The translations under genes and the position numbers were made by a program. Shown one piece after another: positions 1 to 36,659 of a DNA stretch of 37,232 nucleotides (position 1 is the stretch's first letter; each line of letters opens with the position of its first letter). The stretch is from a virus. Its lineage: Duplodnaviria; Heunggongvirae; Uroviricota; Caudoviricetes. Where the stretch lies: IMG/VR virus record IMGVR_UViG_2531839665_000022. One strand, written 5' to 3'. The notes below the pieces were generated by a model, which saw only the letters and a program-made list of their open reading frames with translations, was not told the origin of the DNA and made no database searches.

Positions 1-390
1 TTACTCTTTTTTCTCCGTATCTACATCGGGTTCATCAGCAAATAGCTTGCCCTGCATCCGATCCAGTTCTTCTTTTCTTACCCGCTTAACCACGCTGTAG
101 ACCCACTGAAGCGAAACACCAAATTTGCGGGCCAGTTCATGGTGATTACGTCCGTTAAACTCCCTGAAGATTTCCCGGTCGCGCTGACTGACCTTCCATA
201 CCATGCCCATCGGGAAATAAACGTTTTGCCCGCCCCAGACCTGCATCATGCGGTTCGCGACGGCCTGACCAATCTGGTCGGCAATTGCGGGCTCAATATC
301 AATAATCTCGCGAACGGTCTCAGAGGTATGCTGTGCCAGTTCCACCAGGAGTTCCGGCCCTTTACTTCGAAACTGATTCAGGTCGCTCAT
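1..390 (-). CDS. Mor/C-family transcriptional activator (middle/late operon regulator)
   Basis: 129-aa ORF, same length as Mu Mor; C-terminal HTH-like region (GRNHHELARKFGVSLQWVYSVVKR); last gene of the minus-strand early operon, directly after the GemA-like gene as in Mu. Stop codon is at window positions 1-3. Confidence 0.7.
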   Translation of the reverse strand: MSDLNQFRSKGPELLVELAQHTSETVREIIDIEPAIADQIGQAVANRMMQVWGGQNVYFPMGMVWKVSQRDREIFREFNGRNHHELARKFGVSLQWVYSVVKRVRKEELDRMQGKLFADEPDVDTEKKE

Positions 391-853
391 GTTTTACTCC
401 CGCAGCTCTGCGCTGCCACTTCTTCAGTTTCTCAATAACACTGCTTGCCTGTTCAGTATTGAGCCAGCGCAGGGCGCTGATGCCCGTTTCCCGCTTGATC
501 CACCGCGCTAATGCATTTTCTGAACGGTCACGAACAATGCCGGCAGCAGCCATTTCAAGCCATAGCGCACGGATTTTCCTGGATTGCGGATGGTTATCCA
601 GCGGTAAACCGGAGCTGGCTTTTCCTGCAGGCCTAACGCGAAAGCCTTTCCTTTTCATGGATTCCAGCACGCAGTTTAGTTGTGTGGTATCCATTCCTTT
701 GGTTGAGGCTTTACCGGTCAGCCCCTGTAACATCTGGCGGTAGGTGTCTTCATCCATACCCAGTTCATTACGGGCAATATGAATGAGCTGGATAAGACGT
801 TGTTTAGTCATCATCGTTGCTCCTTCTGCCTGCATCACCGATATAATCGACAT
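362..853 (-). CDS. GemA-like protein (Mu gp16 family)
   Basis: N-terminal KQRLIQLIHIARNELGMDEDTYRQML matches the conserved GemA/gp16 N-terminal signature; position just upstream of the mor-like gene. Start is ambiguous among several in-frame Met codons. Confidence 0.65.
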   Translation of the reverse strand: MSIISVMQAEGATMMTKQRLIQLIHIARNELGMDEDTYRQMLQGLTGKASTKGMDTTQLNCVLESMKRKGFRVRPAGKASSGLPLDNHPQSRKIRALWLEMAAAGIVRDRSENALARWIKRETGISALRWLNTEQASSVIEKLKKWQRRAAGVKHERPESVSK

Positions 854-1019
854 ATAAAGGAAGTGCCACAGGCCAGCACAGGAACATCACCGACCAGCTA
901 ATCCAGTAACCGGCACCACTGTAACGTGAATAAAACCCTGAACGGCGGTGCAGTTCAGCAGTACACCAACCGACAAAACAATACCAGAACAGGGCACATA
1001 CAACAGATTCAGTCGTCAT
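804..1019 (-). CDS. small hydrophobic protein, unknown function
   Basis: Internal ATG at 1017-1019 of the 804..1175 ORF gives about 71 aa with two hydrophobic segments; start overlaps the stop of the upstream ORF in the style of translational coupling. Confidence 0.35.
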   Translation of the reverse strand: MTTESVVCALFWYCFVGWCTAELHRRSGFYSRYSGAGYWISWSVMFLCWPVALPLYVDYIGDAGRRSNDDD

Positions 1020-1239
1020 TCTGAATATCCCCCCAACTGATATGAATATTACGGGCAGCAATGACAGGGTCTTTATTCCACCATGCACCTGACATGTATT
1101 TTTCAACCTGTTCGCGTCCGGCAATAACACCAATTGTGATCCCCGGCCTGACGTTCTTAAAAAAGGCGCGGGCAAAAAGGTATCTGGCAGATATTCGGCA
1201 GGCTTTTAATTTCCGGCTGTTACCTGATAACGTAATCAT
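1009..1239 (-). CDS. hypothetical early protein
   Basis: 76-aa ORF packed in the minus-strand early operon; 4-bp overlap with the upstream gene. No recognisable domain. Confidence 0.35.
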   Translation of the reverse strand: MITLSGNSRKLKACRISARYLFARAFFKNVRPGITIGVIAGREQVEKYMSGAWWNKDPVIAARNIHISWGDIQNDD

Positions 1240-1919
1240 CTGGCCTCCAGTTTCTGCTGTTCCCGCCCACTGACCGGTCGGTGCAGTCTGACGTTCTGCC
1301 CTTCTCGAAACCCCGCATAGCGCGAGGCGTCGCCATTGCGACTTCTTCCCGGTTTACGCGCCCTGGTGGTTTGCGTCTGCGGGTATTTATGTTCCAGCCA
1401 CTGCTGCATCAGTTCACGTTCGTCATCGGTCAGGGCGAAGGACTGTATTTCACTGATAACGGCCAGCACCCAGCCTTCAGCAAACTGGTCTCCACGGCTG
1501 GTGCGGGTGGCGGTTTTTATTCTTTTGTTCTGTGCACTGATATACTGCTGACGCGCCTTTTTCAGCTGACGGGCCAGCACATCCCAGGTGTACGCGGCCA
1601 GTGCGGCCCGTTCCCGGTTGCCGTAGAACCCCACCCCCGGATATGTGCCGGGGTGAATGATGGAGTTAACACCAAATGCCTCGCGGATGATGTTCATCAG
1701 GCCCAGCATGTAGCGCGGCGGACGGAGGCTGCCTGTCGGCCAGTAGTGACTGATGGTTTCATCAATATCACTCATGGCGATGTCGGAATGTGTGATGCCG
1801 TGAACATCCATCAGTTTACGGGCGCGGCGCAGTGCCAGAGCAGCCTCATGCGGGTTGCCGGATGCTGCCAGCGCCAGCAACTTTTTCAGTTTCTCAATGT
1901 GCTTATCCTGGTCTGTCAT
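1236..1919 (-). CDS. DUF2786-like domain protein
   Basis: N-terminal IEKLKKLLALAASGNPHEAALALRRARKLM resembles the DUF2786 signature common in phage early regions; 227 aa. Confidence 0.55.
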   Translation of the reverse strand: MTDQDKHIEKLKKLLALAASGNPHEAALALRRARKLMDVHGITHSDIAMSDIDETISHYWPTGSLRPPRYMLGLMNIIREAFGVNSIIHPGTYPGVGFYGNRERAALAAYTWDVLARQLKKARQQYISAQNKRIKTATRTSRGDQFAEGWVLAVISEIQSFALTDDERELMQQWLEHKYPQTQTTRARKPGRSRNGDASRYAGFREGQNVRLHRPVSGREQQKLEAR

Positions 1920-2116
1920 TGTTCAGTATCTCCGGTATTTTTTTGCTGTTCCCATGCCCGAACAGCGTCGGACAGCTCTTTCAGGCTGTATGCTGCTTTA
2001 AGCTTTTCCCATAACCACTGCGTCACCACGTGGGTCAGCAGGGCAACCAGGGCGAATCCGGCGCAGATGCACACGGCTATACCAGTAAGCAGGAAAGCCC
2101 ATACCACAATTTCCAT
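1916..2116 (-). CDS. small membrane protein, unknown function
   Basis: ATG at 2114-2116 gives 66 aa (MEIVVWAFLLTGIAVCICAGFALVALLTHVV...) with one clear TM helix; the longer 145-aa reading is a basic, low-complexity extension that overlaps the next gene. Confidence 0.4.
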   Translation of the reverse strand: MEIVVWAFLLTGIAVCICAGFALVALLTHVVTQWLWEKLKAAYSLKELSDAVRAWEQQKNTGDTEQ

Positions 2117-2123
2117 AATGGTG

Positions 2124-2507
2124 TCAGTCACTGGTACCTCCTGTGGTGGTCTGGTCAGGTGCGGCGTGTGTCCTGTGGTATTTCCTGAACCAGTGGTACA
2201 GGGCAGCCAGTTTTCTGTCGATAACTTCAGTTTCCCTGTTGAAGTATTCCTGTGCCTCTTTCTCCTCTTGCGGCGGCAGTTCGCCCGGCCCACACAGGGT
2301 GTTGTAAATCCACGCCATGCCGTTCCTGGCATCACCGGTGGCCCGCCACTCAATCACTGCAGCTTTCATGACGACCAGATTGCGCCCGAAGTACAGGTCC
2401 ACCTCTTCAAATCTCTTGCGCAGGTATTCGTTTTCGTCTTCCAGTACCCGAATACGCTGTGCAGCATCTTCCGGCGTCAGTTGTGGCGTCTGTTCGGTGC
2501 GGTTCAT
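2124..2507 (-). CDS. hypothetical early protein
   Basis: 127-aa ORF with coiled-coil-like N-terminus in the early operon; no recognisable domain. Confidence 0.45.
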   Translation of the reverse strand: MNRTEQTPQLTPEDAAQRIRVLEDENEYLRKRFEEVDLYFGRNLVVMKAAVIEWRATGDARNGMAWIYNTLCGPGELPPQEEKEAQEYFNRETEVIDRKLAALYHWFRKYHRTHAAPDQTTTGGTSD

Positions 2508-2806
2508 ATGATTTCTCCGGTGTATGTGACGCCCAGCCGTGCGGCAAGGCGTTCCAGTTTTTTCTGTTTGTGGAAGTCAATCAGCCGGTCCATTCCCTGA
2601 AGGCGCAGCTGCTCTGTCATGATTTCCACGTCTGCCAGCTCTGCCGCGAGGTCACTTTCGCTGCCCTGTCCGTTCAGGTTGCGGGCGGCACTGGCCGCCA
2701 GTTCAGCGGCCTCTTCTGTCAGTTTCAGGGCCTGTGCGTCCGGCCCGAAACGCTGCAGGGCCAGACGGTAGAGGGCGGTGCGGGTGAGTTCGGTGTTCCG
2801 TGTCAT
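2504..2806 (-). CDS. MazG-like nucleotide pyrophosphohydrolase domain protein
   Basis: 100 aa with paired acidic motifs (LTEEAAELAA ... AAELADVEIMTEQL) typical of small phage MazG-like proteins. Confidence 0.5.
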   Translation of the reverse strand: MTRNTELTRTALYRLALQRFGPDAQALKLTEEAAELAASAARNLNGQGSESDLAAELADVEIMTEQLRLQGMDRLIDFHKQKKLERLAARLGVTYTGEII

Positions 2807-2815
2807 GCCGCGCCC

Positions 2816-3088
2816 TCAGTGTTTCCGGTCGACGGTGATGTTCAGGCCGCCTTCTGCAGTGGTTTCCACCCGGTACGGCACCTCGTGCTCTGCCGTGTGG
2901 GTGAGTGTGTTCATCAGTACCTGCAGGGCAGCCTCCTTTCCGTTGGTTGCCACAATGGCCTGCGTGGCCATGCTGATTAGCGCCGTCAGGACGTGCTTCA
3001 CATCGGTGAGGTCGCGGCATTCACACTCGTTGACATAGTGTTCAACAAGAGTTCGGGTGCGCTGTCGTGCTTCCTGTGGGGTAATCAT
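2816..3088 (-). CDS. hypothetical early protein
   Basis: 90-aa ORF, 4-bp overlap with the downstream gene; no recognisable domain. Confidence 0.4.
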   Translation of the reverse strand: MITPQEARQRTRTLVEHYVNECECRDLTDVKHVLTALISMATQAIVATNGKEAALQVLMNTLTHTAEHEVPYRVETTAEGGLNITVDRKH

Positions 3089-3279
3089 TGCGCGTCCTCC
3101 CTGTCAGGGCGGGAGAATTCCATGACGGGCACGTCCGCCGAAAAATGCTGGCTGCAGTACGGACAGACCAGGGTGACACGTACTGCAGGTACGTGGTACT
3201 TACCGGACATCACGGCGATGGCGCTGTGAAAACGCAGGGCTGTTATATCCCTCTCGCACTGAATACATTTAAATATCAT
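3085..3279 (-). CDS. zinc-ribbon-like small protein
   Basis: 64 aa with two Cys pairs (CIQCERD ... CPYCSQ) spaced like a zinc ribbon. Confidence 0.4.
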   Translation of the reverse strand: MIFKCIQCERDITALRFHSAIAVMSGKYHVPAVRVTLVCPYCSQHFSADVPVMEFSRPDREDAQ

Positions 3280-3376
3280 AATTTAATTCTCCTCTGTTTC
3301 CGGCGTGCAGAAGCCCACGGCGCTGACGCCGGAATAAAAAAGAAAATGTTTTTATTAAATAATTAACGTGGTGTGT

Positions 3377-3907
3377 TTACTGCACATCCTGCTCAAAAGG
3401 AATTATTGAAAAATCCTCAATATCACTTTTTATGGTAATACCGGGAATATTTTTCACGGCGTCCTTTTCATTCAGGATAGCGTCTTTATTTATTTCCTCC
3501 TTTACACGGATAAAGCGCTCAAGCCCCAGACGTCTCAGTAATTCAATAACATTATCCGCCCCACGGATACTGACTGATGGCGGACGGTTTCGCCACTGCA
3601 CCTCGCCGGTGGTGAGGTTAGCGAACTTCACCTTCCCGTTGCCGGTCAGTTCATCACGGTGTGCCTCACACCATGTCTGAATACCGGACTGCAGTTCGGC
3701 CATGCGTTTTTTCAGGCTCTCGGTGAGCGGGGCATAACGTGCGGTGATATCGCCAATGGCGTCATTCATTTCTGTTTCAGCCCTGACCAGTTCACGGTGT
3801 GCGTCACCGAGCAGTCTGATGCCCTCAATGACCTCTTCACGTGTCCCCGGCACCCAGAGTGCTGCTGCGGCCTTGATACGTTTTGCACCTTTTGTACTTT
3901 TTGCCAT
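3377..3907 (-). CDS. gam: Gam-like host-nuclease inhibitor protein
   Basis: 176 aa, collinear with Mu Gam as I recall it: MAK..KRIK.AAA, TEMNDAI..IT, WCEA.RDELT..GKVK.ANL.TG.V.WR.RPPSVSIRG, LGL.RFIR.K.EINK.AIL, GIT.KS.IEDFSIIPFEQ. Confidence 0.85.
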   Translation of the reverse strand: MAKSTKGAKRIKAAAALWVPGTREEVIEGIRLLGDAHRELVRAETEMNDAIGDITARYAPLTESLKKRMAELQSGIQTWCEAHRDELTGNGKVKFANLTTGEVQWRNRPPSVSIRGADNVIELLRRLGLERFIRVKEEINKDAILNEKDAVKNIPGITIKSDIEDFSIIPFEQDVQ

Positions 3908-3934
3908 TTTTTATGATTTCTCCAGTTGTGCTGA

Positions 3935-4204
3935 TTACCACAAAGATTCCGGCCACACGACGCGACAGCCGTGCAGTTCGAAAACGCCCTGACGGAAATA
4001 TCCCCTGTGGTCATGTCCGGTATACAGATAACAGGCCTTTCCCTGCTCAAGCATGCGCATGCAATGCGCACTCCTGGAAACGCGGATGACAGGTTTGTTA
4101 CCCCTGATGGTGATGCTTTGTACATCCGTGTTCGTCGCCTTAAGCGCCATAATGGCTGACTGCACTTTACTGATTTGCTGGTTGATACCTGTGGTGGATT
4201 TCAT
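3935..4204 (-). CDS. hypothetical protein
   Basis: 89-aa ORF between the B-like and Gam-like genes; no recognisable domain. Confidence 0.35.
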   Translation of the reverse strand: MKSTTGINQQISKVQSAIMALKATNTDVQSITIRGNKPVIRVSRSAHCMRMLEQGKACYLYTGHDHRGYFRQGVFELHGCRVVWPESLW

Positions 4205-4206
4205 TA

Positions 4207-5400
4207 TTAAACCCCTTTGACAACGTCAGCGTTGACCTGTGGAACCCCGATTTCAGCGGCCAGATTCATGGCGGCTATTACCAGGTTACTGACGGCCAGC
4301 GGATACAGCAGGCTGACCCTGTTTTTACGATGACTTCCCGGATTGCTCAGGCGGGCACGTATGGCATCCACTGCGCCGGTGTCCATAATGTCCGTCAGTT
4401 GTTTACCGGCCCGTTGCAGTTTGAACGTCAGAAATTCTTCAAGGTGATTGTCCAGAGGCAGAAGTTCGACCACCTCACAGCGCTGAACGACTTCGCGGAC
4501 TTCCATGTTGCGTTCAGACAGTTTTGTCGCCAGTTCCGGCTGGCCAATCAGCACGATGGACAGCAGCTTTTTGAAACCGGACTCCAGCTCAAAAAAGCGT
4601 TTGAGGTGTTTCAGTGTCGGAATGGGCAGACTGTGAGCCTCCTCAATCACCAGAACGTGGCTGAACCCCGCCTGGTTGCTGTCTTTCAGGACGCGATGCA
4701 ACTGGCGAAAGCGGGCGTCCTGACTGCGTCTGATGCTTTCCAGTGGTGCGATGGTACTGATAATGGCTTCGGCAATCGCTGCTGCCTTCAGAGTTTTCCC
4801 TTTCACATCGTTGTCTTCCATAGCGATGATGTATGGCTCGATAACAATCACTGGCGCATTCTCGCGGTTGATACGTTCAGTCAGGTCACGGCGCAGCGTG
4901 GATTTACCCGCACCGGACTCACCGATGACGGCCATAAACCCACCATGACGGGCTGTCTGGTACAACGCCTCACGCACGTAGCGAATGTCTGGTGTGGTGA
5001 ACACATCATCAGAACCCTGCATGGCTTCGTCGGCGAACGGGTCACGGAAAAGACCAAACGCTTTTTTGGTTGCTGGAAATAACACCTGTTTTTTGAGTAA
5101 CATATTCTCTTCCTCACTGAGGCTCGTTTTATCTGTGGTACCCGCTGTACGGGGCGTGGCCGCGCCCTGTACAGCATCAAAACTCTTCGCTGTATCAATC
5201 CCCTGACTTTCCAGCCAGGACGCAAGACGCCGGCGCACTTCTCCGGGGCTGGTGCGGGGCCACGCGTTATGATTCACAATCTGGGCCAGCGTGGCCTCAG
5301 AAACATCGACAGCTCTCGCCACCACCGCCTGTGGAATACGGGCCTCTTTCAGTTGCTGCTTCAGTACCAGCATGTTTCCCTCCTCAGTTGCCGTTAACAA
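4207..5400 (-). CDS. AAA+ ATPase, Mu B-like transposition target-capture protein
   Basis: N-terminal HTH-like segment, Walker A (VIGESGAGKST), Walker B-like (HVLVIEEAHSL); lies immediately after the transposase gene with a 17-bp overlap. Confidence 0.75.
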   Translation of the reverse strand: MLTATEEGNMLVLKQQLKEARIPQAVVARAVDVSEATLAQIVNHNAWPRTSPGEVRRRLASWLESQGIDTAKSFDAVQGAATPRTAGTTDKTSLSEEENMLLKKQVLFPATKKAFGLFRDPFADEAMQGSDDVFTTPDIRYVREALYQTARHGGFMAVIGESGAGKSTLRRDLTERINRENAPVIVIEPYIIAMEDNDVKGKTLKAAAIAEAIISTIAPLESIRRSQDARFRQLHRVLKDSNQAGFSHVLVIEEAHSLPIPTLKHLKRFFELESGFKKLLSIVLIGQPELATKLSERNMEVREVVQRCEVVELLPLDNHLEEFLTFKLQRAGKQLTDIMDTGAVDAIRARLSNPGSHRKNRVSLLYPLAVSNLVIAAMNLAAEIGVPQVNADVVKGV

Positions 5401-7153
5401 TGCTGATAACGCTGCTGCGGGCCGGCGTGGTCAGCGTGGCCATGACTTCATCCAGTGCGGCTTCCGGTACGCCGTCCGGATACTGTGCCGTTAACTGGCG
5501 GTAATGTTCCGGCGTCCAGGTAAGGCCGTCGGCGCTGAACTTATCGCGCAGGGCTTTCGCGGCCTCCACATGAGTCATGGGACGTTGTTCAGTGCGCAGC
5601 CCGCGTACGTCAGAGGCCTGACCTCGCTTCGGTATACAGGCCGGAAGTGTGGCGTCATCAATATGTTTATATGGGTCAAGCCGCCCGCCGAACGGCAGCG
5701 CCTTCGCCTTGCGTGCGGCAGCTGCATCTGCGGCGTTGTCTGTACCGGTGACCAGCGCTTCGGTTTCTTTTGCCGCCATCTGCGCCGGGGTTTCCGGCAG
5801 GGCTTTGTAACTTTCGCCAAATACCGCCGCGCTTTCAGCAAAGCCAAACTCGTTCTTTCTGACCTCTTCGACCAGGAAGAACGCCTCGTGGCCGTCCTCA
5901 CCGGTCAGAACCACCTGTGCCACATCGCTGCGCCACGGGTTACGGGTAATCATCAGTTTTTCACCGACCAGTACGCCCGGTACCGTTGATACGTCAAATT
6001 CAGTGCCCCGGAACGAGACACGAAGTTTTGGCGTGACTTTGCGGAGTTCTGGTGTCGCCACAGCCAGTTCACGGCATACCTCAACGGAAGGCGCTTTTTT
6101 CAGCTGCTCAGCAGTAATCTTCAGCCAGATATCCGTGCGGGTTTTACCGTGGCGGCTGTGAACAGCCGTGGCGTTAAAGTGGCTGCGCCATTTCGCGGCC
6201 AGCGCGTTGAGTTCTTCCAGACTGTGAACCGGCCGGAACTTCAGACCCGGCTCCAGCTTGCGTTCGATAATGTCACGCGCCTTTTCCACCTGTCCGGTGG
6301 CGCGGGCGTTATGCGGCTTGTGTGCTATCAGGTCGATGCCCAGTGAGCGGCACATGTTTTTCGTCATACCCGCGGTGTTTGCCGAGCCGGGGTCGAGATA
6401 GAGTATTTTCGGCACGCCGTGCAGCACGTCTGCGCCGCCACGCTCCTGCATGGCGTTGATAAGCACAGAACACAGGTTCTCACCGGATTCCGCACCCGTC
6501 ACATACTCAACGTAAATCCAGCCGCTGGCATGGTCGGTAATCTCGTAACTCCACACGCGGTCACTGGCGATACAGGCAAGGTTAGCGGGCTTGTTCTTGT
6601 AGAACTTCGCGCTGTCCATCACCTGCAGTCCTTTGTGTCCATTACTCAGGTAGTAAAGCGTGCAGAGCGAGGCATCAATCTGCCAGACATGATTGGGATG
6701 CAGACTGGCCACTTCGGTATGCGGCGCAGGGGCATCCAGTTGTTCCGGGTGCAGGCCATAGTTACGCAGGGCTCGGCTGATGGCATCTTCGGACAACGGG
6801 AAAAACTCACCGGTGGTTTCATCTGTTCTGCCTGCGGAGATAAAGCCATTAGCCCGCAGGGTTTCCACTGCATCCGCGATGGAATAGAGACGCTTACCGT
6901 TCTTGCGGGTGGCCTCACGCAGTGTGGCAGATATCAGCGCGGCTTCGTCGCGGGTCAGGGCGCTGCGCCCGGCATCGGCGCGTTTTTTGCGTTTATCAGT
7001 CACAGAGACCTCCTTCAGCCTGCGCAGCAGAGTGGCGCGGGACATGCCAAGTTCAGCACAGGCAGCGTCGTATATTGCACCGCGTTTACCATGCCCCGCG
7101 TCACGTGCCGCGCGGGCGACATAAACCAGTCGTTCAGTCAGGGCAGCATTCAT
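5384..7153 (-). CDS. DDE transposase, Mu A-like (integrase-core fold)
   Basis: 589 aa; N-terminal HTH (MSRATLLRRLKEV), candidate catalytic residues in the HVWQIDAS and ILYLDPGSANTAG segments, followed by the B-like ATPase. Confidence 0.8.
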   Translation of the reverse strand: MNAALTERLVYVARAARDAGHGKRGAIYDAACAELGMSRATLLRRLKEVSVTDKRKKRADAGRSALTRDEAALISATLREATRKNGKRLYSIADAVETLRANGFISAGRTDETTGEFFPLSEDAISRALRNYGLHPEQLDAPAPHTEVASLHPNHVWQIDASLCTLYYLSNGHKGLQVMDSAKFYKNKPANLACIASDRVWSYEITDHASGWIYVEYVTGAESGENLCSVLINAMQERGGADVLHGVPKILYLDPGSANTAGMTKNMCRSLGIDLIAHKPHNARATGQVEKARDIIERKLEPGLKFRPVHSLEELNALAAKWRSHFNATAVHSRHGKTRTDIWLKITAEQLKKAPSVEVCRELAVATPELRKVTPKLRVSFRGTEFDVSTVPGVLVGEKLMITRNPWRSDVAQVVLTGEDGHEAFFLVEEVRKNEFGFAESAAVFGESYKALPETPAQMAAKETEALVTGTDNAADAAAARKAKALPFGGRLDPYKHIDDATLPACIPKRGQASDVRGLRTEQRPMTHVEAAKALRDKFSADGLTWTPEHYRQLTAQYPDGVPEAALDEVMATLTTPARSSVISIVNGN

Positions 7154-7156
7154 TGG

Positions 7157-8068
7157 TTATGCCTCCAGCCCGTTAATCTGTGGCGTCGGCTCAGTCAGCC
7201 ATGAAGGCGCTGCATTGCCTGTTGGCTCGTCCGGCAGGTCAAATGTGGAGCGCAGGCTACGCGCTGTGCTTTCCAGTTGACAGACCAGGCCTGCCATGAA
7301 GTCTCTGGGGGTATCAATCATGTTTTCAGCACAATATGCGCACAGTGTCTCAAAAGCGCTGGACAGTCGAACGGCGATAGCAGATTCCGCCTCAACCGCT
7401 AATGCTGTCACTTCCGCCCGCAGCTTCTTAACCTCCTCATCAGGCTCAGGCGGCTGAATACGGGATTTCTTTTCCAGTCTGGTAGAGAGAGAATCAATTT
7501 TTTCATTTTTATCGGCGAGTACGCGCTGTTGTGCTGCGTTGGTTTCGCGCGCTTCGCGCAGGGCCTGGCGAAGTTCGCGTACTGACATGCGATCAACGTC
7601 GTCAAGCGTCAGGCCGGCAACTGTGCCGCCGTCGGCCAGTTCGGCAAGCTCTTCGTCGTCTTCTGTCATTAATTCGAAAAGTTTGGCTTTTCCCAAATGT
7701 GCCAACGTTGGCACATTTGGTTTCAGCGCCGGGGATAAGTATTTTGTCGATGCTTGCATCATTCTCACAGATGTCCGGTATGCCAGCCCCAACTCACTTT
7801 CAAGAATCTTTATAAACTCCCCGTGTGGTTCATTTTCCTTAAGGATTATCAGCCGCTTACCTGCCTCCAGCATGGCCTCAGCGCTCTGTGCCATATAAAA
7901 GCGTGCCTCATGGACAACACGATCGCGCTCATAGGGCAGACCATCGCCGAACTGTTGCATGATTTCCATGCGATGCTGTGTCATGGCGTTTAGACTGACA
8001 TTGAGATCATCCGACAGCGGTACCTCGACGTTCAGTTCAGTGCTAACCGGTGATTTGGTGCGTCCCAT
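7157..8068 (-). CDS. hypothetical early protein with coiled-coil region
   Basis: 303-aa ORF between the regulators and the transposase; acidic and coiled-coil-like middle; no domain I can name. Confidence 0.45.
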   Translation of the reverse strand: MGRTKSPVSTELNVEVPLSDDLNVSLNAMTQHRMEIMQQFGDGLPYERDRVVHEARFYMAQSAEAMLEAGKRLIILKENEPHGEFIKILESELGLAYRTSVRMMQASTKYLSPALKPNVPTLAHLGKAKLFELMTEDDEELAELADGGTVAGLTLDDVDRMSVRELRQALREARETNAAQQRVLADKNEKIDSLSTRLEKKSRIQPPEPDEEVKKLRAEVTALAVEAESAIAVRLSSAFETLCAYCAENMIDTPRDFMAGLVCQLESTARSLRSTFDLPDEPTGNAAPSWLTEPTPQINGLEA

Positions 8069-8078
8069 TGATTACTCC

Positions 8079-8387
8079 TTACAAACGACTACCTGAAATA
8101 ACACGTTGGTTGATTTCGTTAATGCGATCCTGTGCACGTGCCATCTCGTTACTGTGGGCCATGGCGATCTGCAGCAACTGGATGCCTGGTGCGAAACGCC
8201 CGTTTTCTAGTTTCAGAGCCAACCCTTCTTCAATGAGCGTGTTAAGTGCCCGGTTGATGTTTGCCGGTGATTCGTGCAGTGCAACCGCTAGTTCCCCGTT
8301 AGAAACACCGTTCAAAGCGTGGCCACGTAAGGCCTTAAGAACGCGCAAAATACGGGTACCTGAGCTTGATGTATTTGGTTTATTCAT
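8079..8387 (-). CDS. winged-helix DNA-binding protein (IclR/MarR-like HTH)
   Basis: 102 aa; RILRVLKALRGHALNGVSNGELAVALHESPANINRALNTLIEEGLAL looks like a winged-helix HTH. Confidence 0.5.
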   Translation of the reverse strand: MNKPNTSSSGTRILRVLKALRGHALNGVSNGELAVALHESPANINRALNTLIEEGLALKLENGRFAPGIQLLQIAMAHSNEMARAQDRINEINQRVISGSRL

Positions 8388-8614
8388 GACGCCTCCTTAA
8401 GGATACCGGGGGTAACTTCTTTACCTATTGCAACCGATAGATCTCGCAAAATCCGATAAGTCAAACGACCGCGAGGTAGTTCACTTTTACCAGCCCAGCG
8501 ACTGACTGCCTGGGTGACTGTTCGTGGTTCATAGCCCGCGTTAAGCGCGAACTGGCGCAAGCTACTGCCTCGTTCAACCAGCCGTGCCCGAACTTGTTGT
8601 TTGTTCATATGCAC
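8384..8614 (-). CDS. Ner-like DNA-binding protein
   Basis: 76 aa, first gene of the minus-strand early operon; SLRQFALNAGYEPRTVTQAVSRW parallels the Mu Ner HTH segment as I recall it; divergent from the repressor gene. Confidence 0.55.
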   Translation of the reverse strand: MHMNKQQVRARLVERGSSLRQFALNAGYEPRTVTQAVSRWAGKSELPRGRLTYRILRDLSVAIGKEVTPGILKEAS

Positions 8615-8696
8615 CGTGTTCCTGTTAGGTTATGATGTACTCTATTGGGTCTATTGTACACACCCAAATGAGTGTGTCAAATTGAGATATGTTCAA
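8615..8696. promoter_or_regulatory. divergent early/repressor promoter-operator region
   Basis: 82-bp AT-rich spacer between divergent Ner-like and repressor genes; contains a CTATTG direct repeat, a TGTAC/GTACA inverted repeat and the dyad TACACAC-N9-GTGTGTC (8657-8679). Confidence 0.5.
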
Positions 8697-9104
8697 ATGA
8701 GTACAAAAGAGAGATTGCGTGAAGTGATGGATGCTAATGGCATGACAATAAAGGCATTATCTGACTTATCAAAAATTCCATATCGCTCACTTCAAAACTA
8801 TTTGCGTGGAGAGAGAGAACCAAACGCAGAGGCTCTTGTTGCGCTAAGTGCCCATTTGGGTGTATCGATCGATTGGCTACTTACCGGTAAAGAACATATT
8901 CCATCTAAAGAAATTGTTGCTGTACCAACACAACATCAATTCAGCCCGTCAGACCTTAAAATGCTTGAACTTCTAAACCAGTTAGATCCTGAGGTTCGGC
9001 GAGATCTCATGCGAGGCGCTGAAGAAAAACAGCGTGTGATTGAGATGGAAAAACAACTGAAGGAATTATCCGCAACGATTGAGCGGTTAAAAAATGTGGG
9101 TTAA
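8697..9104 (+). CDS. XRE-family HTH repressor (prophage repressor candidate)
   Basis: Start placed at ATG 8697 (MSTKERLREVMDANGMTIKALSDLSKIPYRSLQNYLRGEREP), a classic XRE-type HTH, 135 aa; divergent from the early operon. The upstream 32 codons of the listed 167-aa ORF are hydrophobic and lie within the operator region. Confidence 0.7.
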   Translation: MSTKERLREVMDANGMTIKALSDLSKIPYRSLQNYLRGEREPNAEALVALSAHLGVSIDWLLTGKEHIPSKEIVAVPTQHQFSPSDLKMLELLNQLDPEVRRDLMRGAEEKQRVIEMEKQLKELSATIERLKNVG

Positions 9105-9174
9105 TGTGTTCCTAACGAGAACATATAGCAGAAATTATTTGCCATTAAGCAATAAAAAATAAGGTGGATAGCCA

Positions 9175-10182
9175 ATGTCTGAGCAGACCATTGAAGTTAA
9201 ACACGTTGTAGTTCACATTTTAGACAAACAACAAAATGGAGACGCTTCTGAGAGATTGAGTCCTGAAGAAGGTCTAGTTACTGAAGCCTCTCAGCGCCTT
9301 ATAAACGATATTTGTGCAAAATATGCAGGACGCACAGGTAAAGGTTATGGCTATTTTGAAGGCGATACGGATAACTATCCTATGGAACGAATGGCTGGGG
9401 ACTTTCTCGAAGGTGTTGATGATTTCTACCAAAGTTCCTGCCGAATGATGCATCACCTGACGGAACGTTCTCAGCGAGAAAACATGGCTACTGGTGGTTA
9501 TGTTCTTTTTGCAAATATCGTGATAGGACACAATGAACACCTGTTGATAGCTATTGTAAGCGCTACCATTGGGTCCACTGTCACAGATGATTTTAACATC
9601 CAAGATAGTACCTATCTTGATATTGCTAAGCTGCGTATGGCTGGGCGCATTGACTTAACCGCGTGGGAAAGTGGCGCAGAGCGCTATATCAGTTTTCTTA
9701 AGGGGCAAGGTAATGTTTCAAACTATTTTAAACAGTTCCTAGGCTGTAATGATGTCTTAATCGCCAAACGAGAGTCTGAAAAGTTACGTGACGTTTTAAA
9801 AGCATTTGCGGCAGAGAAAGGACTTGACGGCGCTGAAAAAGATGCATTTCTTAAGAGTGCGTTTGAACACTTACATGCACTAAGTAAGGCTGGTGAACCA
9901 CTTAGTCTTGAAACCCTTGTTAATGCCATTTGGCCCCAGGCTCCCGAGGAGTTATCTGGTAAACTTGCTGCTGAAGAGTTGGAGTTATCGGATGGCTTCG
10001 TTCCTGATGGTCGAGTCATTCGGGCTCTGGTATCTTTTAAAGGCAAGTCTAAATATTGGGAACTTAAGTTTGACCGGGAAGGGAAAACTGAAGGCTATAT
10101 TGATTATGATCCGGAAACAAATATTATCACCCTACGTAATGTACCTGAAGAATTTAGGGAAATGTGGATGACTGAGGTTTAA
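9175..10182 (+). CDS. NdpA/YejK-like nucleoid-associated protein homolog
   Basis: 335 aa, same length as E. coli YejK; collinear motifs as I recall YejK: (V/I)HxLDK near the N-terminus, GGYVLFANIV, and RIDLTAWESGAERYISFLKG...FKQFLG matching RIDLTEWE...RYLTFLKG...FFMDFLG. AT-rich codon usage unlike the flanking phage genes. Confidence 0.6.
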   Translation: MSEQTIEVKHVVVHILDKQQNGDASERLSPEEGLVTEASQRLINDICAKYAGRTGKGYGYFEGDTDNYPMERMAGDFLEGVDDFYQSSCRMMHHLTERSQRENMATGGYVLFANIVIGHNEHLLIAIVSATIGSTVTDDFNIQDSTYLDIAKLRMAGRIDLTAWESGAERYISFLKGQGNVSNYFKQFLGCNDVLIAKRESEKLRDVLKAFAAEKGLDGAEKDAFLKSAFEHLHALSKAGEPLSLETLVNAIWPQAPEELSGKLAAEELELSDGFVPDGRVIRALVSFKGKSKYWELKFDREGKTEGYIDYDPETNIITLRNVPEEFREMWMTEV

Positions 10183-10184
10183 TC

Positions 10185-11390
10185 GTGGCGATTTCATTTG
10201 AGATGCTGACAGCTCTGTATCGTCGTATGGAATTCCAAGAGGGGTTTCGTGTCGGTTCGCTGTTGCTCTTAGATCAGTCCGATTGTGATCTGGTTGATAC
10301 TTTGCTTGATGATCCTCGTGAATATGGTCTTTCTATTGATACAGGCACTATCGCTCCAGGTAACACGATCATCCTACGTGTGACGTCACCACGGAGTGGA
10401 CTGGGACTTGTGTTTTCCACCCATGAAAAATTGCTAAATGCTCCAAAGCATCAGTGCCTTGAGCCAGCTAATTACTTCATCCTAGAAACAAAATTTCGTA
10501 ATGATGATGAAGATATCCCCGTTTTCATCAGCAACTACCGGAAGATTCTCGAGTTCGTTAACCTGCTAAAAGAGGCCGCGGCCTACTTTGATAACTCAAC
10601 TTGTCAGTTAGTTTTTCTGAAAAAAGAAGTTATCAAGCTATTACCGCACTTCGCTGCAGAAAATGTACAAAATTTGCAAAGGGAGTATCTTGATAACCTT
10701 ATAGCTTGTTTCAATGATGATACCCATAAGGATCAGAAGCTAGATATTCTGATTGAAAGTATTCAAGCAGTTAGTGATGGAATTGATTCACCTCTAGTAT
10801 TCGCTTATTTACTGGACAATATTCAGCGTCTGCATGAAAAGTTTCTGAAAGGGTATCGTATCTACTCTTCTGGATTCTCTTATGACAAAGTAATGGATCA
10901 ACTGCGTGCTGCAAAAGTCGAAGAAATGGGTAAAATCCACAAAGCGTTTTCAGATATCCAGAACCATATACTTGGCATTCCTGTTGCCTCTGTTATCGTA
11001 GCTACCCAATTCAAAGTGGCTACGAAATGGTCAGGCCAAGGGATAACAAACACAATAATTCTTCTGGGATGCATTTTTGCTGCAACGTTAATCTGGCTGG
11101 CACTTTCGAACCAGATGCAATCTATAAAGGCCTTAGGCGAAGAAATTGAATACAAAGAAAAACAGATTAATAAGGAATATTCCTTCATTAAAGATGACGT
11201 GGCTGGTGTATTTAGCAGTATTTCTGCGCGACTAGACACGCAGAAACGTACGTTCTGGATTATACGTGGTGTTCTAGTTATGGGAATTATTACCGCTATC
11301 ACTGTTTATTTTTGGTACACAAAACCAGCCCTTGACTTCATGCAGTACTTGATTCACTGCATGAAGTCTTACTATTCGGTCAAAAGTTGA
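10185..11390 (+). CDS. hypothetical protein with two C-terminal transmembrane helices
   Basis: 401 aa, starts 3 bp after the NdpA-like stop (operon partner); soluble N-terminal region then TM helices GITNTIILLGCIFAATLIWLALS and FWIIRGVLVMGIITAITVYFWY; AT-rich; no domain I can name. Confidence 0.5.
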   Translation: MAISFEMLTALYRRMEFQEGFRVGSLLLLDQSDCDLVDTLLDDPREYGLSIDTGTIAPGNTIILRVTSPRSGLGLVFSTHEKLLNAPKHQCLEPANYFILETKFRNDDEDIPVFISNYRKILEFVNLLKEAAAYFDNSTCQLVFLKKEVIKLLPHFAAENVQNLQREYLDNLIACFNDDTHKDQKLDILIESIQAVSDGIDSPLVFAYLLDNIQRLHEKFLKGYRIYSSGFSYDKVMDQLRAAKVEEMGKIHKAFSDIQNHILGIPVASVIVATQFKVATKWSGQGITNTIILLGCIFAATLIWLALSNQMQSIKALGEEIEYKEKQINKEYSFIKDDVAGVFSSISARLDTQKRTFWIIRGVLVMGIITAITVYFWYTKPALDFMQYLIHCMKSYYSVKS

Positions 11391-12150
11391 GGATAATGAG
11401 TTCCTTCTTGCGACTGGATTTGCCAGTGATCTTGAGGTTGTAGCTGATATCAACCGACTGAATATTTAGACCGTTGAATGCCTGCCGCATTTCCGGGATA
11501 TCGTTCACCGATATAATCATCTTCCCTTTGATCCTGCGTGCTAAATCTGCCATATGATCATAATTTTCTAGTCCGAACTCCACACCATAACCTTCCGTTC
11601 CCCAGTATGGAGGGTCACAGTAGAACAACGTATGCGGGCGATCATATCGTTCTATGCACTGTTGCCAGTCCATGTGTTCTATGACCGTTCTGGAAAGCCG
11701 CAGGTGTGCCGCTGACAGTTCTTCTTCAATACGCAGCAGGTTGAAGCGTGGCGGGGATATGGTGGAGGTACCAAAGCTGTGCTCCGCCACCTTGCCCCCA
11801 AACGCCTGCTTCTGAAGGTAATAGAACCGTGCTGCACGCTGGATATCCGTCAGTGTTTCTTCCGGGGTGATCTGCAGCCATTTGTAGATCTGCCGGCTGA
11901 CCAGCGCCCATTTGAACTGGCGTACAAATTCTTCCAGATGATGTTTTACCACCCGATACAGGTTCACCAGCTCACCGTTGATATCATTAATGACTTCGAT
12001 CTTGCCGGGTACCTTAAGAAAATAGAGCGCTGCTGCCCCACAAAACGGCTCCACATAACATTCATGCGCCGGAAACAGCGGCAGGATGTGTTTTGCAAGG
12101 CGGCGTTTGCCACCAATCCATGGAACGATGGGTAATGTCTGCATTTTCAT
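11380..12150 (-). CDS. DNA adenine methyltransferase (Dam family)
   Basis: 256 aa; SAM-binding motif EPFCGAAALYF and catalytic DPPY motif (FYCDPPYW); convergent with and overlapping the upstream plus-strand gene by 11 bp. Confidence 0.8.
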   Translation of the reverse strand: MKMQTLPIVPWIGGKRRLAKHILPLFPAHECYVEPFCGAAALYFLKVPGKIEVINDINGELVNLYRVVKHHLEEFVRQFKWALVSRQIYKWLQITPEETLTDIQRAARFYYLQKQAFGGKVAEHSFGTSTISPPRFNLLRIEEELSAAHLRLSRTVIEHMDWQQCIERYDRPHTLFYCDPPYWGTEGYGVEFGLENYDHMADLARRIKGKMIISVNDIPEMRQAFNGLNIQSVDISYNLKITGKSSRKKELIILNF

Positions 12151-33578: not shown

Positions 33579-34502
33579 ATGGCAAATCTACCCGAAACCC
33601 CGCAGTGGGAAAGCGGCATCTACCAGATTGAGGTCTCTGACCCCGTTCTGGGCGGACCTGACGGAATTTCTAACCGCCAGGCTAAACAACTGGCCAGCCG
33701 AACGTCATACCTCAAACAGAAGGTCGAAAAAAGCGGAACAGACCTGGCTGCACATATCGCGGCAGTTGACCCGCATACCCAGTACGCGACGAAAGCCAGT
33801 CCGACATTCACCGGCACACCAACAGCACCTACACCTGCAAATGGTGATAACAGCAAAAAGCTGGCGACGACGGAGTTTGTGGCCAAAGCACTTGCGGCAC
33901 TTGCAGGCAGCGCCCCTGAGACACTGGATACGCTTAAAGAGCTGGCTGACGCTCTCGGTAATGATCCAAACTTTGCGACTACGGTACTGAACAAGCTGGC
34001 GGAAAAGCTGGCTAAAGACCAGAACGGCGCAGATATTCCTGAGCCTGCGCTGTTTGTCAAAAACCTTGGTTTGGGGGAAGGCTCAGCGCTGCCCGTTGGT
34101 GTGCCCGTTCCGTGGCCCTCAGCCACACCGCCAGCAGGGTGGCTGAAATGTAACGGCGCAGCATTTTCTTCTGAAATGTACCCCAATCTGGCAAAGGCTT
34201 ATCCTACAAATAAATTACCGGATTTACGGGGTGAGTTTATTCGCGGCTGGGATGACGGGCGGGGAATTGATTCAGGACGTACTCTACTTTCGTTACAGGG
34301 CGATATGTTTAAATCGCACAGTCATTACTTCCGTGAAATATGGGGTGCAAATGGACCAGATGGAACTGGTGGACCGTACATTGTCGGGGCGGATACAAAC
34401 GGTTCGAGAATAAATTTAGGCACTATAGAAACCAGTGCACCTGGTGGTTCAGAAACCCGTCCCCGTAACATTGCATTTAATTACATCGTAAGAGCCGTAT
34501 GA
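33579..34502 (+). CDS. tail fibre protein with exchangeable collar-domain tip (cassette 1 currently fused)
   Basis: 307 aa; N-terminal conserved fibre region; from codon about 165 it enters the repeated segment GEGSALPVGVPVPWPSATPPAGWLKCNGAAFSSEMYP...LPDLRGEFIRGWDDGRGID and ends with RPRNIAFNYIVRA (phage tail collar domain signature). Confidence 0.8.
   Translation: MANLPETPQWESGIYQIEVSDPVLGGPDGISNRQAKQLASRTSYLKQKVEKSGTDLAAHIAAVDPHTQYATKASPTFTGTPTAPTPANGDNSKKLATTEFVAKALAALAGSAPETLDTLKELADALGNDPNFATTVLNKLAEKLAKDQNGADIPEPALFVKNLGLGEGSALPVGVPVPWPSATPPAGWLKCNGAAFSSEMYPNLAKAYPTNKLPDLRGEFIRGWDDGRGIDSGRTLLSLQGDMFKSHSHYFREIWGANGPDGTGGPYIVGADTNGSRINLGTIETSAPGGSETRPRNIAFNYIVRAV
34054..34280 (+). repeat. 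cassette-1 recombination site plus shared 5' homology block
   Basis: 26-bp site TTGTCAAAAACCTTGGTTTGGGGGAA (34054-34079) with the perfect dyad AAACC-TT-GGTTT; left half resembles the hix/gix half-site consensus as I recall it; followed by about 200 bp nearly identical to three other copies. Confidence 0.6.
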
Positions 34503-34722
34503 AAACGTTGGTTTGGGGGAAGGCTCTGCACTGCCCGTTGGTGTGCCCGTTCCGTGGCCCTCAGCCACACCGCCAGCAGGGTGGCTGAAATGTAACGGTG
34601 CAGCATTTTCTTCTGAAATGTACCCCAAACTGGCAAAAGCCTACCCCGCGAATAAATTACCGGATTTACGGGGTGAGTTTATTCGCGGCTGGGATGACGG
34701 GCGGGGAATTGATTCAGGGCGT
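34496..34722 (+). repeat. cassette-2 recombination site plus shared 5' homology block (direct copy)
   Basis: Site CGTATGAAAACGTTGGTTTGGGGGAA (34496-34521), right half identical to site 1; overlaps the stop codon of the fused fibre gene. Confidence 0.55.
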
Positions 34723-35016
34723 TCCTTGCTTAATGCACAATCACATTCGGTTATAGATCATATTCACTATATGGAGTTATGGACTGGTGAAGGGCTTGCC
34801 GCAAATAGCACCCGTGCAGGAACAAACCCTGGTATACTGGCTACATACGGTGATGGCGGGATTGTTAAAACAGATGAGTCAGGTGTAAAAGTTCCATCTT
34901 CACTACGTGCTATTGGCACTCGTGGTGTTTATAGATTAGGTGCCAACGGAGGGAATACAGGAACGGAAAACCGCCCCCGTAATATTGCGTTTAACTATAT
35001 TGTAAGGGCTACTTAA
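34513..35016 (+). CDS. alternative tail-fibre tip cassette 2 (collar domain), not fused in this orientation
   Basis: 167 aa starting with the same about 70-aa segment as the fibre tip and ending RPRNIAFNYIVRAT, with a distinct middle; directly downstream of a hix-like site; no own RBS. Confidence 0.65.
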   Translation: MGEGSALPVGVPVPWPSATPPAGWLKCNGAAFSSEMYPKLAKAYPANKLPDLRGEFIRGWDDGRGIDSGRSLLNAQSHSVIDHIHYMELWTGEGLAANSTRAGTNPGILATYGDGGIVKTDESGVKVPSSLRAIGTRGVYRLGANGGNTGTENRPRNIAFNYIVRAT

Positions 35017-35633
35017 TGAATAATGCTGCTGCAGTACTTGATCAGAATGGTATCGCTATAACTGCAGGCGATATTACCGTTTATAACTACGATGCTGAAA
35101 ACCGTGAATATCTCTCTGCCACTGTTGAGTATCTCGCTTATGGTGTTGGAATTCCGGCTCACTCATGCATTGACGCGCCACCAGAAAAACGCCCCGGCTT
35201 CGCTGTCTGTCGTGATACCGACCAGAACATCTGGAAATATGTTCCAGACCACAGAGGCGAAACGGTTTACAGCACAGAGAATGGTAACGCTGTGCAAATC
35301 ACACAACCGGGAGATTACCCTCCTGATACGACGGTGAAACAGCCAGCTACTATCTATGATGTCTGGGATGGTGAGACCTGGGTGACAGATGCGGGACGAC
35401 AGCACGCAGCAGAACTGGAAGCTGCCGGAGCGCATCGTCAGCAACTTGAGGAACAGGCAATGGCATCTGTTGAGCTTATAAATCTCAAACTACGAGCCGG
35501 ACGCCGATTGACGCCCCAGGAGACGGAAAAACTAAACGCCGTGCTTGATTTCATAGATGTGCTTAATGCGACTGACATCAGCACTGCACCGGATATCAAC
35601 TGGCCGGAAATGCCTCTGGCAGCAGCCAGTTGA
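35016..35633 (+). CDS. tail fibre assembly protein (Mu U / P2 G-like)
   Basis: 205 aa; N-terminus MNNAAAVLDQNGIAITAGDITVYNYDAENREY typical of tail-fibre assembly chaperones. Confidence 0.7.
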   Translation: MNNAAAVLDQNGIAITAGDITVYNYDAENREYLSATVEYLAYGVGIPAHSCIDAPPEKRPGFAVCRDTDQNIWKYVPDHRGETVYSTENGNAVQITQPGDYPPDTTVKQPATIYDVWDGETWVTDAGRQHAAELEAAGAHRQQLEEQAMASVELINLKLRAGRRLTPQETEKLNAVLDFIDVLNATDISTAPDINWPEMPLAAAS

Positions 35634-35639
35634 ATATAA

Positions 35640-36116
35640 CTAAGCCGCCCTCACGATATAGTTAAATGCAATATTGCGGGGGCGGGTTTCACTACCACCT
35701 GTGTTACCAATACTTCCTCGTGAATGAAGCGTTGGTGATGGAGTCAAACTCCCTCCTGTATTTGTGGCATCAAGCCCCCTGCCTTGTGTATATGTTTTTT
35801 TGAAAATCGTAGCCAACTCCCATTCATCTTTTGTGTCATATCCATCGTTAGCTACAACAATATGGCGGTGTTTTTCCAACATCCCGTTTTGAATGCTCAA
35901 TAAAGCGCGTGCCGCATCAATTCCTCGCCCATCATCCCAGCCACGGATAAATTCTCCGCGTAAATCCGGTAATTTATTCGCGGGGTAGGCTTTTGCCAGT
36001 TTGGGGTACATTTCAGAAGAAAATGCTGCACCGTTACATTTCAGCCAGCCCGTTGGTGGTGTTGCTAAGGGCCACGGAACGGGCACACCAACGGGCAGTG
36101 CAGAGCCTTCCCCCAA
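35640..36116 (-). CDS. alternative tail-fibre tip cassette 3 (collar domain), inverted orientation
   Basis: 158 aa on the minus strand with the same shared N-terminal segment and C-terminal RPRNIAFNYIVRAA, distinct middle. Confidence 0.65.
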   Translation of the reverse strand: MGEGSALPVGVPVPWPLATPPTGWLKCNGAAFSSEMYPKLAKAYPANKLPDLRGEFIRGWDDGRGIDAARALLSIQNGMLEKHRHIVVANDGYDTKDEWELATIFKKTYTQGRGLDATNTGGSLTPSPTLHSRGSIGNTGGSETRPRNIAFNYIVRAA

Positions 36117-36133
36117 ACCAACGTTTCTATGCC
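35907..36133 (-). repeat. cassette-3 recombination site plus shared homology block (inverted copy)
   Basis: Reverse complement of 36108-36133 is GGCATAGAAACGTTGGTTTGGGGGAA; inverted relative to sites 1 and 2. Confidence 0.55.
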
Positions 36134-36588
36134 GCTCTTACGATGTAATTAAATGCAATATTACGCGGACGAGCTGATACATAAGCCCACCAGTCATATT
36201 TTTGTGCACCTTTACTGGATGCATCAAATATCCACTTTTTGCCATTTATGGCCCCCCATTGATTAGAGCTTAAAGTGTCACCAAATCCGTATTGTGTTGA
36301 GCTGAGTGAACTGATATCCCCAGTATCATTATCATCAAAACCGGAGACGATAGTGCCTTCCTGAAATGAAAGTATCTCTCGTCCTGCATCAATACCTCGT
36401 CCGTCATCCCAGCCACGAATAAACTCACCCCGTAAATCCGGTAATTTATTCGCGGGGTAGGCTTTTGCCAGTTTGGGGTACATTTCAGAAGAAAATGCTG
36501 CGCCGTTACATTTCAGCCACCCTGCTGGCGGTGTGGCTGAGGGCCACGGAACGGGCACACCAACGGGCAGCGCTGAGCCTTCCCCCAA
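36127..36588 (-). CDS. alternative tail-fibre tip cassette 4 (collar domain), inverted orientation
   Basis: 153 aa on the minus strand with the same shared N-terminal segment and C-terminal RPRNIAFNYIVRAA, distinct middle. Confidence 0.65.
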   Translation of the reverse strand: MGEGSALPVGVPVPWPSATPPAGWLKCNGAAFSSEMYPKLAKAYPANKLPDLRGEFIRGWDDGRGIDAGREILSFQEGTIVSGFDDNDTGDISSLSSTQYGFGDTLSSNQWGAINGKKWIFDASSKGAQKYDWWAYVSARPRNIAFNYIVRAA

Positions 36589-36605: not shown

Positions 36606-36659
36606 AACTCCCACCTATACCAGCTATGTATTTTTAACAAAACAAAGAGGATATTTTTC

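Follow-up and report, generated by a model that had tools for sequence, protein, structure and literature searches.

Eight small early genes between Gam and GemA in a BcepMu-like prophage of Escherichia coli: a probable accessory segment with semi-core and swappable modules

The IMG/VR virus record IMGVR_UViG_2531839665_000022, analysed here as a single 37,232-nt stretch of DNA (the window), is a BcepMu-like (Bcepmuvirus) transposable prophage of Escherichia coli. Between its Gam and GemA genes, at positions 804-3279, lie eight small minus-strand genes that we call O1 to O8. We propose that they probably form an accessory, "semi-essential-like" segment of the early operon, in which a semi-core of O1, O3, O6 and O8, kept in most relatives and changing mostly at synonymous positions, is combined with modules that can be swapped. 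The region is a real but ordinary accessory early region, with no demonstrated or strongly implied new mechanism. A first-pass annotation of the same DNA, made from the sequence alone, had instead presented it as a candidate anti-defence and host-takeover locus; anti-defence activity of at least one of its members is possible.

The eight genes stand back to back and cover 99.6% of the interval. Their junctions overlap by 4, 4, 8, 4, 4 and 11 nt, with gaps only behind Gam (97 nt) and separating O2 from O3 (9 nt), and GemA overlaps the stop of O8 by another 8 nt. The Prokaryotic Genome Annotation Pipeline (PGAP) calls exactly these eight coding sequences in the prophage of E. coli MS20655, which is 99.9% identical to the window, and all eight match PHROG families (E values from 5.5e-16 to 8e-76); NCBIfam matched none of them. 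The tight packing of eight small open reading frames (ORFs) described in the first-pass annotation is borne out by these calls, families and overlaps, except that the smallest product has 64 amino acids (aa) rather than 66.

Substitution analysis backs seven of the eight frames. Relative to other E. coli copies, the ratio of nonsynonymous to synonymous substitution rates (dN/dS) is 0.06-0.13 for O1, 0.21-0.58 for O2, 0.12-0.18 for O3, 0.38 for O5, 0.04-0.11 for O6 and 0.20 for O8; the O7 value, 0.28-0.77, comes from only 2-8 substitutions, and no ratio is computable for O4, whose copies are 97-100% identical. Amino acid identity to Klebsiella KP12 and Phi06_2974 B is 41-86%; the ORFs retain their length and frame there, and the ratios of nonsynonymous to synonymous differences per site (pN/pS) are 0.20-0.61 (0.28 for O7). 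The first-pass annotation had allowed that the frames might not be conserved as coding sequences; instead they are kept in relatives, with fewer amino-acid-changing than silent substitutions in seven of the eight.

A possible objection is that some of these ORFs are not genes but chance open frames in GC-rich DNA. Long ORFs do exist in alternative frames, for example a plus-strand frame of 439 aa (1281-2600), neither O7 nor O8 has a GC bias by codon position, and the dN/dS of O7 within E. coli is based on very few substitutions. Set against this are the PHROG families found for all eight, the overlapping start and stop codons, and the retention of length and frame in other genera with pN/pS of 0.2-0.6. 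The 439-aa ORF, which is antisense to O6, O5, O4 and O3, is shorter in other E. coli copies and absent from divergent Klebsiella-type relatives, and we rejected it as a gene. The objection is largely refuted and we find it scarcely credible.

We regard the eight genes as part of an operon because nearly all of their stop and start codons overlap, they share a single strand, and no internal promoter or terminator signal rises above chance (3.1 promoter-like sites were expected and one was found; 4.7 terminator-like sites were expected and five were found). Induction or infection would then yield a single early message that includes O1-O8, and its translation would be coupled from gene to gene.

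The surroundings place the segment within a Mu-type early operon. The early genes occupy the minus strand between about 8.4 kb and base 1. From the 8.4-kb end they are those for a Ner-like helix-turn-helix protein, a DUF3102 protein, transposase A and an ExeA-family B-like ATPase, followed by an ORF of 89 aa, Gam, the eight ORFs, GemA and Mor; late genes start on the plus strand at about 12.4 kb. The slot is bounded upstream by the host-nuclease inhibitor Gam (3377-3907, minus strand; PF07352 at 1e-40, 62% identity to Mu Gam) and downstream by GemA of the gp16 family (362-811 with the PGAP start, minus strand; PF06252 at 1.3e-40, 36% identity to Mu GemA). The last gene of the early operon encodes the Mor-family activator of the middle operon (1-390, minus strand; assigned to the family by PGAP, 31% identity to Mu Mor). 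With Gam, GemA and Mor all homologous to those of Mu, the earlier equation of this position with the Mu semi-essential region holds. The closest sequenced phage is Escherichia phage PhiKM, of the genus Bcepmuvirus (95% identity across 76% of the region), and region 700-3400 of the window is matched in 640 of 5,426 complete E. coli genomes.

To follow the slot among relatives we used 23 genome loci located through Gam and 80 IMG/VR loci located through GemA, 71 of which have a complete interval. In the 23 Gam loci the content of the interval varies, from nothing recognisably homologous up to genes totalling about 3 kb, within a persistent set of A, B, Gam, GemA and Mor. Only O3 is kept in Dickeya and Symbiopectobacterium, one Burkholderiaceae genome has an O6 homologue only, and the interval of about 400 bp in Brenneria has no detectable homologue at all. 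Fifteen presence/absence patterns occur among the 71 complete IMG/VR intervals, and three of these intervals carry the full pattern of the window. E. coli itself has three architectures: the eight ORFs of the window, seven without O4 (the commonest), and six without both O4 and O5 (architecture C).

Other genes can occupy the slot. We found a PF04447 dATP/dGTP pyrophosphohydrolase (E value 4.7e-44) in three loci, for example at 3616-4107 of locus L072, and a Lar_restr_allev domain (34.7 bits; cutoff 28.6) within 3189-4121 of locus L096, though not in this window; mosaic proteins with a common N-terminal module and several small ORFs are also found there. The Lar domain of L096 and the PF04447 domain of L072 are fused to modules that also occur in a 128-aa protein of KP12, and resemble the mosaic proteins of the lambdoid exo-xis region. 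Part of the module repertoire of the slot thus appears, from sequence similarity, to be common to lambdoid exo-xis/nin-type accessory genes, because O4 matches an Ea22-like C-terminal module and PF04447 and Lar_restr_allev domains occupy the slot in relatives. Replacement also reaches the gene directly upstream: in 30 IMG/VR loci from Klebsiella and other hosts (for example L030 2616-3227 and L072 2457-3068) an unrelated DUF3164 protein (PF11363 at 3e-80) stands at the Gam position, a non-orthologous swap.

Among the semi-core genes, O3 (2504-2806, minus strand; 100 aa) is the one for which an activity can be suggested. It matches phrog_2245, "nucleoside triphosphate pyrophosphohydrolase", at 5.7e-34, and NCBI names a 98%-identical protein as a member of the nucleoside triphosphate (NTP) pyrophosphohydrolase family. 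Ten of 17 homologues are hit by PRA-PH at E<0.1 (best 0.0012) and three by MazG. The same 17 sequences share an acidic motif EExxE...ExxD, in which E56 is invariant, E31, E32 and D59 each reach at least 90% conservation, and E35 also occurs. An AlphaFold2 model (mean predicted local distance difference test, pLDDT, 89.9) has three helices, including one long C-terminal helix, in the helical-bundle fold of the superfamily; Foldseek returned nothing significant with this model. We accept O3, at the level of predicted fold and motif, as a minimal member of the all-alpha (MazG/PRA-PH-like) NTP pyrophosphohydrolase superfamily and a putative enzyme, and the earlier description of a MazG-like pyrophosphohydrolase stands at that same level. 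Its family comprises just 56 clusters, of which every named one comes from Enterobacterales, and is restricted to temperate Mu-like elements of that group; a profile comparison of this family with the PF04447 protein of the relatives gave no significant similarity. At E<=1, tblastn matched O3 to six of 50,697 phage records, four of them from temperate or prophage-type phages and two from fragmentary gut-metagenome contigs; no lytic-phage record was related to O3 at that threshold.

MazG-type enzymes cut the alpha-beta phosphoanhydride bond of (deoxy)nucleoside triphosphates, (d)NTPs, or of alarmones, and the phosphodiester bonds of cyclic-nucleotide messengers are not expected substrates. Cyclic-nucleotide messengers are therefore unlikely substrates of O3, while alarmones or modified NTPs are possible ones, and the earlier suggestion that this enzyme might degrade nucleotide second messengers can hold only for signals that bear a pyrophosphate.

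O6 (1236-1919, minus strand; 227 aa, isoelectric point 10.1) had been described as DUF2786-like, and it indeed scores above threshold for DUF2786 (PF10979, 43.0 bits against 23.9) and also for DUF7168 (PF23771, 91.2 bits against 25.5). Its family comprises 2,206 clusters in a library of 1.84 billion proteins, nearly all of 220-245 aa. The AlphaFold2 model (pLDDT 93, predicted template modelling score 0.85) opens with a helical hairpin at the N terminus, continues with an alpha/beta core (strands 52-56, 85-89 and 95-101; helices 69-82 and 102-129) and ends in helices at the C terminus. The predicted core resembles a KH domain, but the canonical GXXG loop, which joins the two helices in the beta-alpha-alpha-beta-beta-alpha KH fold, is not seen, and PDB searches with the single sequence and with a profile gave nothing significant; we treat "KH-like, possibly nucleic-acid-binding" as a hypothesis from the model, not as a family assignment. 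Homologues occur in 171 phage records, chiefly transposable phages of Pseudomonas and Ralstonia. In JBD25 the O6-type gene lies between the DUF3164 protein gene and GemA, and in LPB1 it lies directly upstream of GemA and Mor; since this position is kept across genera, a role intrinsic to the phage can be argued. A literature search on DUF2786, DUF7168 and the RefSeq accessions found no functional study.

The remaining semi-core genes are O1 and O8. O1 (3085-3279, minus strand; 64 aa; phrog_3401 at 1.7e-40) is the zinc-ribbon protein of the first-pass annotation (CIQC...CPYC) and is near-universal in the lineage, being present in 70 of the 71 complete intervals; its CxxC...CxxC pairs are kept in KP12 and Phi06_2974 B at 56-58% identity. 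O8 (804-1019, minus strand; 71 aa; phrog_6436 at 5.5e-16) is aromatic-rich and probably membrane-associated. It is 83-86% identical in KP12 and Phi06_2974 B (pN/pS 0.20), while a second allele, 42% identical, is found in PhiKM and many E. coli. Two small membrane proteins had been predicted for the locus. This holds well for O5 (1916-2131, minus strand; 71 aa, or 66 from an inner ATG; phrog_3958 at 2.3e-35), a single-pass protein with a strong transmembrane segment (Kyte-Doolittle 19-residue maximum 2.63), and less well for O8, whose two aromatic-rich hydrophobic stretches are only moderately hydrophobic (maximum 1.51 over 19 residues).

O5 has two alleles, the common one being 70% identical to that of the window, and is absent from some relatives, architecture C included. 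Two other variably present genes, O2 and O7, remain from the three ORFs that had been left without any assignment; the third, O4, proved to carry an Ead/Ea22-type C-terminal module. O2 (2816-3088, minus strand; phrog_3691 at 1.3e-54) encodes an acidic protein of 90 aa, is missing from many relatives and is the fastest-evolving gene of the locus (in Phi06_2974 B 41% identity at equal length, pN/pS 0.61). O7 (1009-1239, minus strand; phrog_3681 at 2.1e-53) encodes a basic protein of 76 aa, has a GC content of 45%, is 73% identical in KP12 and is missing from about 40% of relatives. For O2 and O7, Pfam and PDB sequence searches yielded nothing beyond the PHROG families. Together O7 and O8 (804-1239) have a GC content of 45-47% without codon-position bias, and O1-O6 have 55-70% GC at codon positions 1 and 3; the low GC without codon bias, along with O8 alleles only 42% identical, suggests a separate origin for this end of the slot.

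O4 (2124-2507, minus strand; 127 aa) is a rare insertion, found in six of the 5,426 E. coli genomes and three of the 71 complete IMG/VR intervals, with only two matching clusters among 5.8 billion proteins. It consists of a short coiled coil and the C-terminal module of Ead/Ea22-like proteins of Shiga toxin (Stx) phages: it is 56.6% identical to the C-terminal part of the Ead/Ea22-like protein of 933W (NP_049469) and also matches VT2-Sakai and other Stx phages, and tblastn found it in 97 phage records, mostly of Stx phages. O4 lacks the N-terminal Ead/Ea22 domain (PF13935) and has no Pfam match at E<0.1. In a homologue, P0058 (59% identity), PF13935 lies at residues 5-65, N-terminal to most of the segment shared with O4. 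No match to O4 was found among the sequences of PDB chains. Ea22 of lambda and Stx phages has been reported to favour lysogeny, and to comprise, after its N-terminal domain, a coiled coil and then a C-terminal domain that varies (PMC7093339; PMC10834534).

We rejected the PADLOC assignment of O4 as "DpdH" (PDLC02890, 5e-92), the sole PADLOC match for any of the eight ORFs. DpdH has been described as having an ATPase domain (PMC11888242), while the PADLOC model is just 127 positions long and also hits the 933W Ea22-like protein in its C-terminal domain (1.4e-36); the annotation of the window holds phage genes only, with no dpdA-K island. The label looks like a database artefact, a mislabelled model of a prophage protein, which could yield false Dpd calls.

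From these features we can sketch how the segment might work. The zinc ribbon O1, O3, O6 and the small membrane protein O8 would most likely serve the early programme of the phage itself. O3 would probably hydrolyse the alpha-beta phosphoanhydride of (d)NTPs, non-canonical NTPs or (p)ppGpp, with Mg2+ held by EExxE/ExxD, and such an activity would reshape the nucleotide or alarmone pool; the basic KH-like core of O6 would probably serve to bind nucleic acid or a host protein. O2, the Ea22-type O4, O5 and O7 would be swappable modules, gained and lost by recombination, and would most likely modulate host physiology or the choice between lysis and lysogeny.

Several points weigh against this interpretation of the segment. 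Early co-transcription of the eight genes is argued by analogy with Mu, and the view that semi-core genes are intrinsic to the phage is an argument from distribution. O2, O5, O7 and O8 offer no functional clue. For O3, the Pfam evidence is weak (PRA-PH 15 bits against a cutoff of 21.3, neither PF01503 nor PF03819 reaching its gathering threshold), and PDB searches with the single sequence and with a profile found no relative at the sequence level.

The first-pass annotation saw the region as one that commonly holds host-modulating functions. To call it a hotspot of host interaction is reasonable, given the mosaic slot and the Lar and dATP/dGTP pyrophosphohydrolase domains found there in relatives; to call it an anti-defence locus is a further step that rests on position and association. 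In its strong form this alternative would have most of the eight genes neutralise host immunity, with O3 for example removing an immune nucleotide or alarmone and the acidic O2 along with O4 inhibiting defence proteins. The locus does adjoin the host-nuclease inhibitor Gam, the slot is variable and holds a Lar domain in L096, O2 evolves fastest and O4 is a rare acquisition, and there is a precedent in the phage MazG-like enzyme Atd1, reported to deplete (p)ppGpp and protect from TIR-STING toxicity (bioRxiv 10.1101/2022.06.09.495361). However, searches of Pfam, PHROGs, NCBIfam and PADLOC, none of them a dedicated anti-defence library, linked no ORF of the eight to a described anti-defence family; no record of a lytic phage in the collection is related to O3 at E<=1; and the published work on Ea22 points to a role in lysis-lysogeny (PMC7093339, PMC10834534). 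The idea of an anti-defence island is further weakened because the wide retention and mostly synonymous change of O1, O3, O6 and O8, together with an O6 position conserved across phage genera, suit phage-intrinsic genes better than genes in an arms race. We therefore consider such an island fairly unlikely. That the slot includes one or more new factors of counter-defence or host takeover is, in our estimate, doubtful; O3 would be the best candidate, as a minimal MazG-type enzyme destroying an immune or stress nucleotide that bears a pyrophosphate, such as (p)ppGpp, (p)ppApp or viperin-type ddhNTPs, or else O4 and O2 would inhibit a host protein. Separately, and with the same doubt, O6 may be an unrecognised KH-like nucleic-acid-binding factor shared by transposable phages of several genera.

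Another alternative is that these are genes of lysogenic conversion or superinfection exclusion expressed from the resident prophage for the benefit or protection of its host, with O3 depleting dNTPs, for example, and O5 and O8 blocking incoming phage. Small membrane proteins are common exclusion factors, and the prophage is frequent in E. coli (640 of 5,426 genomes). MazG-like domains also occur as effectors of dNTP-targeting defence systems (bioRxiv 10.64898/2026.01.15.699771). Yet the genes are embedded in a repressed early operon and coupled to their neighbours, without a promoter signal of their own, and the evident cargo of the window is elsewhere, in a low-GC block at 8.6-12.1 kb. We judge this alternative quite improbable and return to the accessory early segment as the best explanation.

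A prophage family found in about one in eight complete E. coli genomes thus carries eight genes between Gam and GemA whose functions have not been described. The analysis narrows any screen for host takeover or counter-defence to O3 and O6 as first candidates, followed by O2 and O4; it gives O3 and O6 testable structural hypotheses, and it shows that a domain of the Lar anti-restriction type can occupy the slot. It does not overturn the current view of Mu-like phages.

Some features elsewhere in the element deserve mention. The MS20655 prophage sits between a truncated 4Fe-4S protein gene and torS. Its host flanks (L002 2455-3447 and 40556-43460) contain the truncated 4Fe-4S-binding protein gene on one side and a partial hypothetical gene with a frameshifted torS on the other, consistent with transpositional insertion in or near host genes. 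The low-GC block (41-47%, window positions 8601-12150), between the CI-like repressor (8601-9104) and the lysis genes, carries genes for a nucleoid-associated NA37 protein (PF04245 at 1e-80; 9175-10182), for a protein of 401 aa that matches KwaA only weakly (8e-5; 10185-11390) and, in convergent orientation, for a Dam-type methyltransferase (11380-12150); the block is possibly a moron or a defence cassette. At the right end of the prophage (window 34500-37232; L002 3523-5800), fragments of tail-fibre and tail-fibre-assembly genes lie on both strands beside a recombinase-family gene, with several pieces annotated as partial, and this looks like a Gin-type invertible host-range segment. An Rfam scan of the whole window at gathering thresholds gave zero matches.

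A close parallel to the segment is the semi-essential region of Mu (Mup11-Mup15, Gam to GemA). Within the early operon both are found between Gam and GemA-Mor, on one strand and downstream of transposase A and B, and both are strings of small, mostly uncharacterised, dispensable-looking genes. The genes themselves differ: tblastn of O1-O8 against Mu bases 1-11000, which include gp5-gp9 and gp11-gp15, gave no match better than E 0.13. The whole early arm of the window is, moreover, inverted relative to the late genes, as in BcepMu and B3-type phages. Bcepmuvirus-like relatives (PhiKM, KP12, Phi06_2974 B and the IMG/VR loci) share the backbone and the O1/O3/O6/O8 semi-core, whereas the window is distinguished by its rare O4, by the other O5 allele and by an eight-gene pattern seen in just three of 71 IMG/VR intervals and six of 5,426 E. 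coli genomes.

Individual genes have counterparts in other systems. O4 resembles the Ead/Ea22-like proteins that lambdoid and Stx phages encode in their exo-xis region, in that it has the end of the coiled coil and the C-terminal domain of the 933W type and is likewise a gene of an early accessory region. It differs in lacking PF13935, and its lack of a PDB match is in line with the report that the C-terminal domain of lambda Ea22 differs from the Stx-phage type (PMC10834534). O6 shares its two-domain architecture, its length and its position upstream of GemA with JBD25 gp6 and LPB1 ORF15.2, which are nevertheless just 34-37% identical to it. The small all-alpha NTP pyrophosphohydrolases with which we compared O3, namely Sulfolobus MazG (1vmg), PRA-PH (1yvw and 3c90), integron iMazG (2q5z) and DCTPP1/RS21-C6, differ from it in that O3 is sub-threshold in Pfam, has no PDB sequence match and is modelled with three helices. 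Atd1 of Pectobacterium phage PcCB7V and O3 are both minimal MazG-type catalytic domains encoded by phages, and by this analogy O3 could act like Atd1 on (p)ppGpp. In the 50,697 phage records, where the presence of PcCB7V is unconfirmed, no similarity at E<=1 linked O3 to that phage, and unlike Atd1, O3 is confined to temperate Mu-like elements of Enterobacterales.

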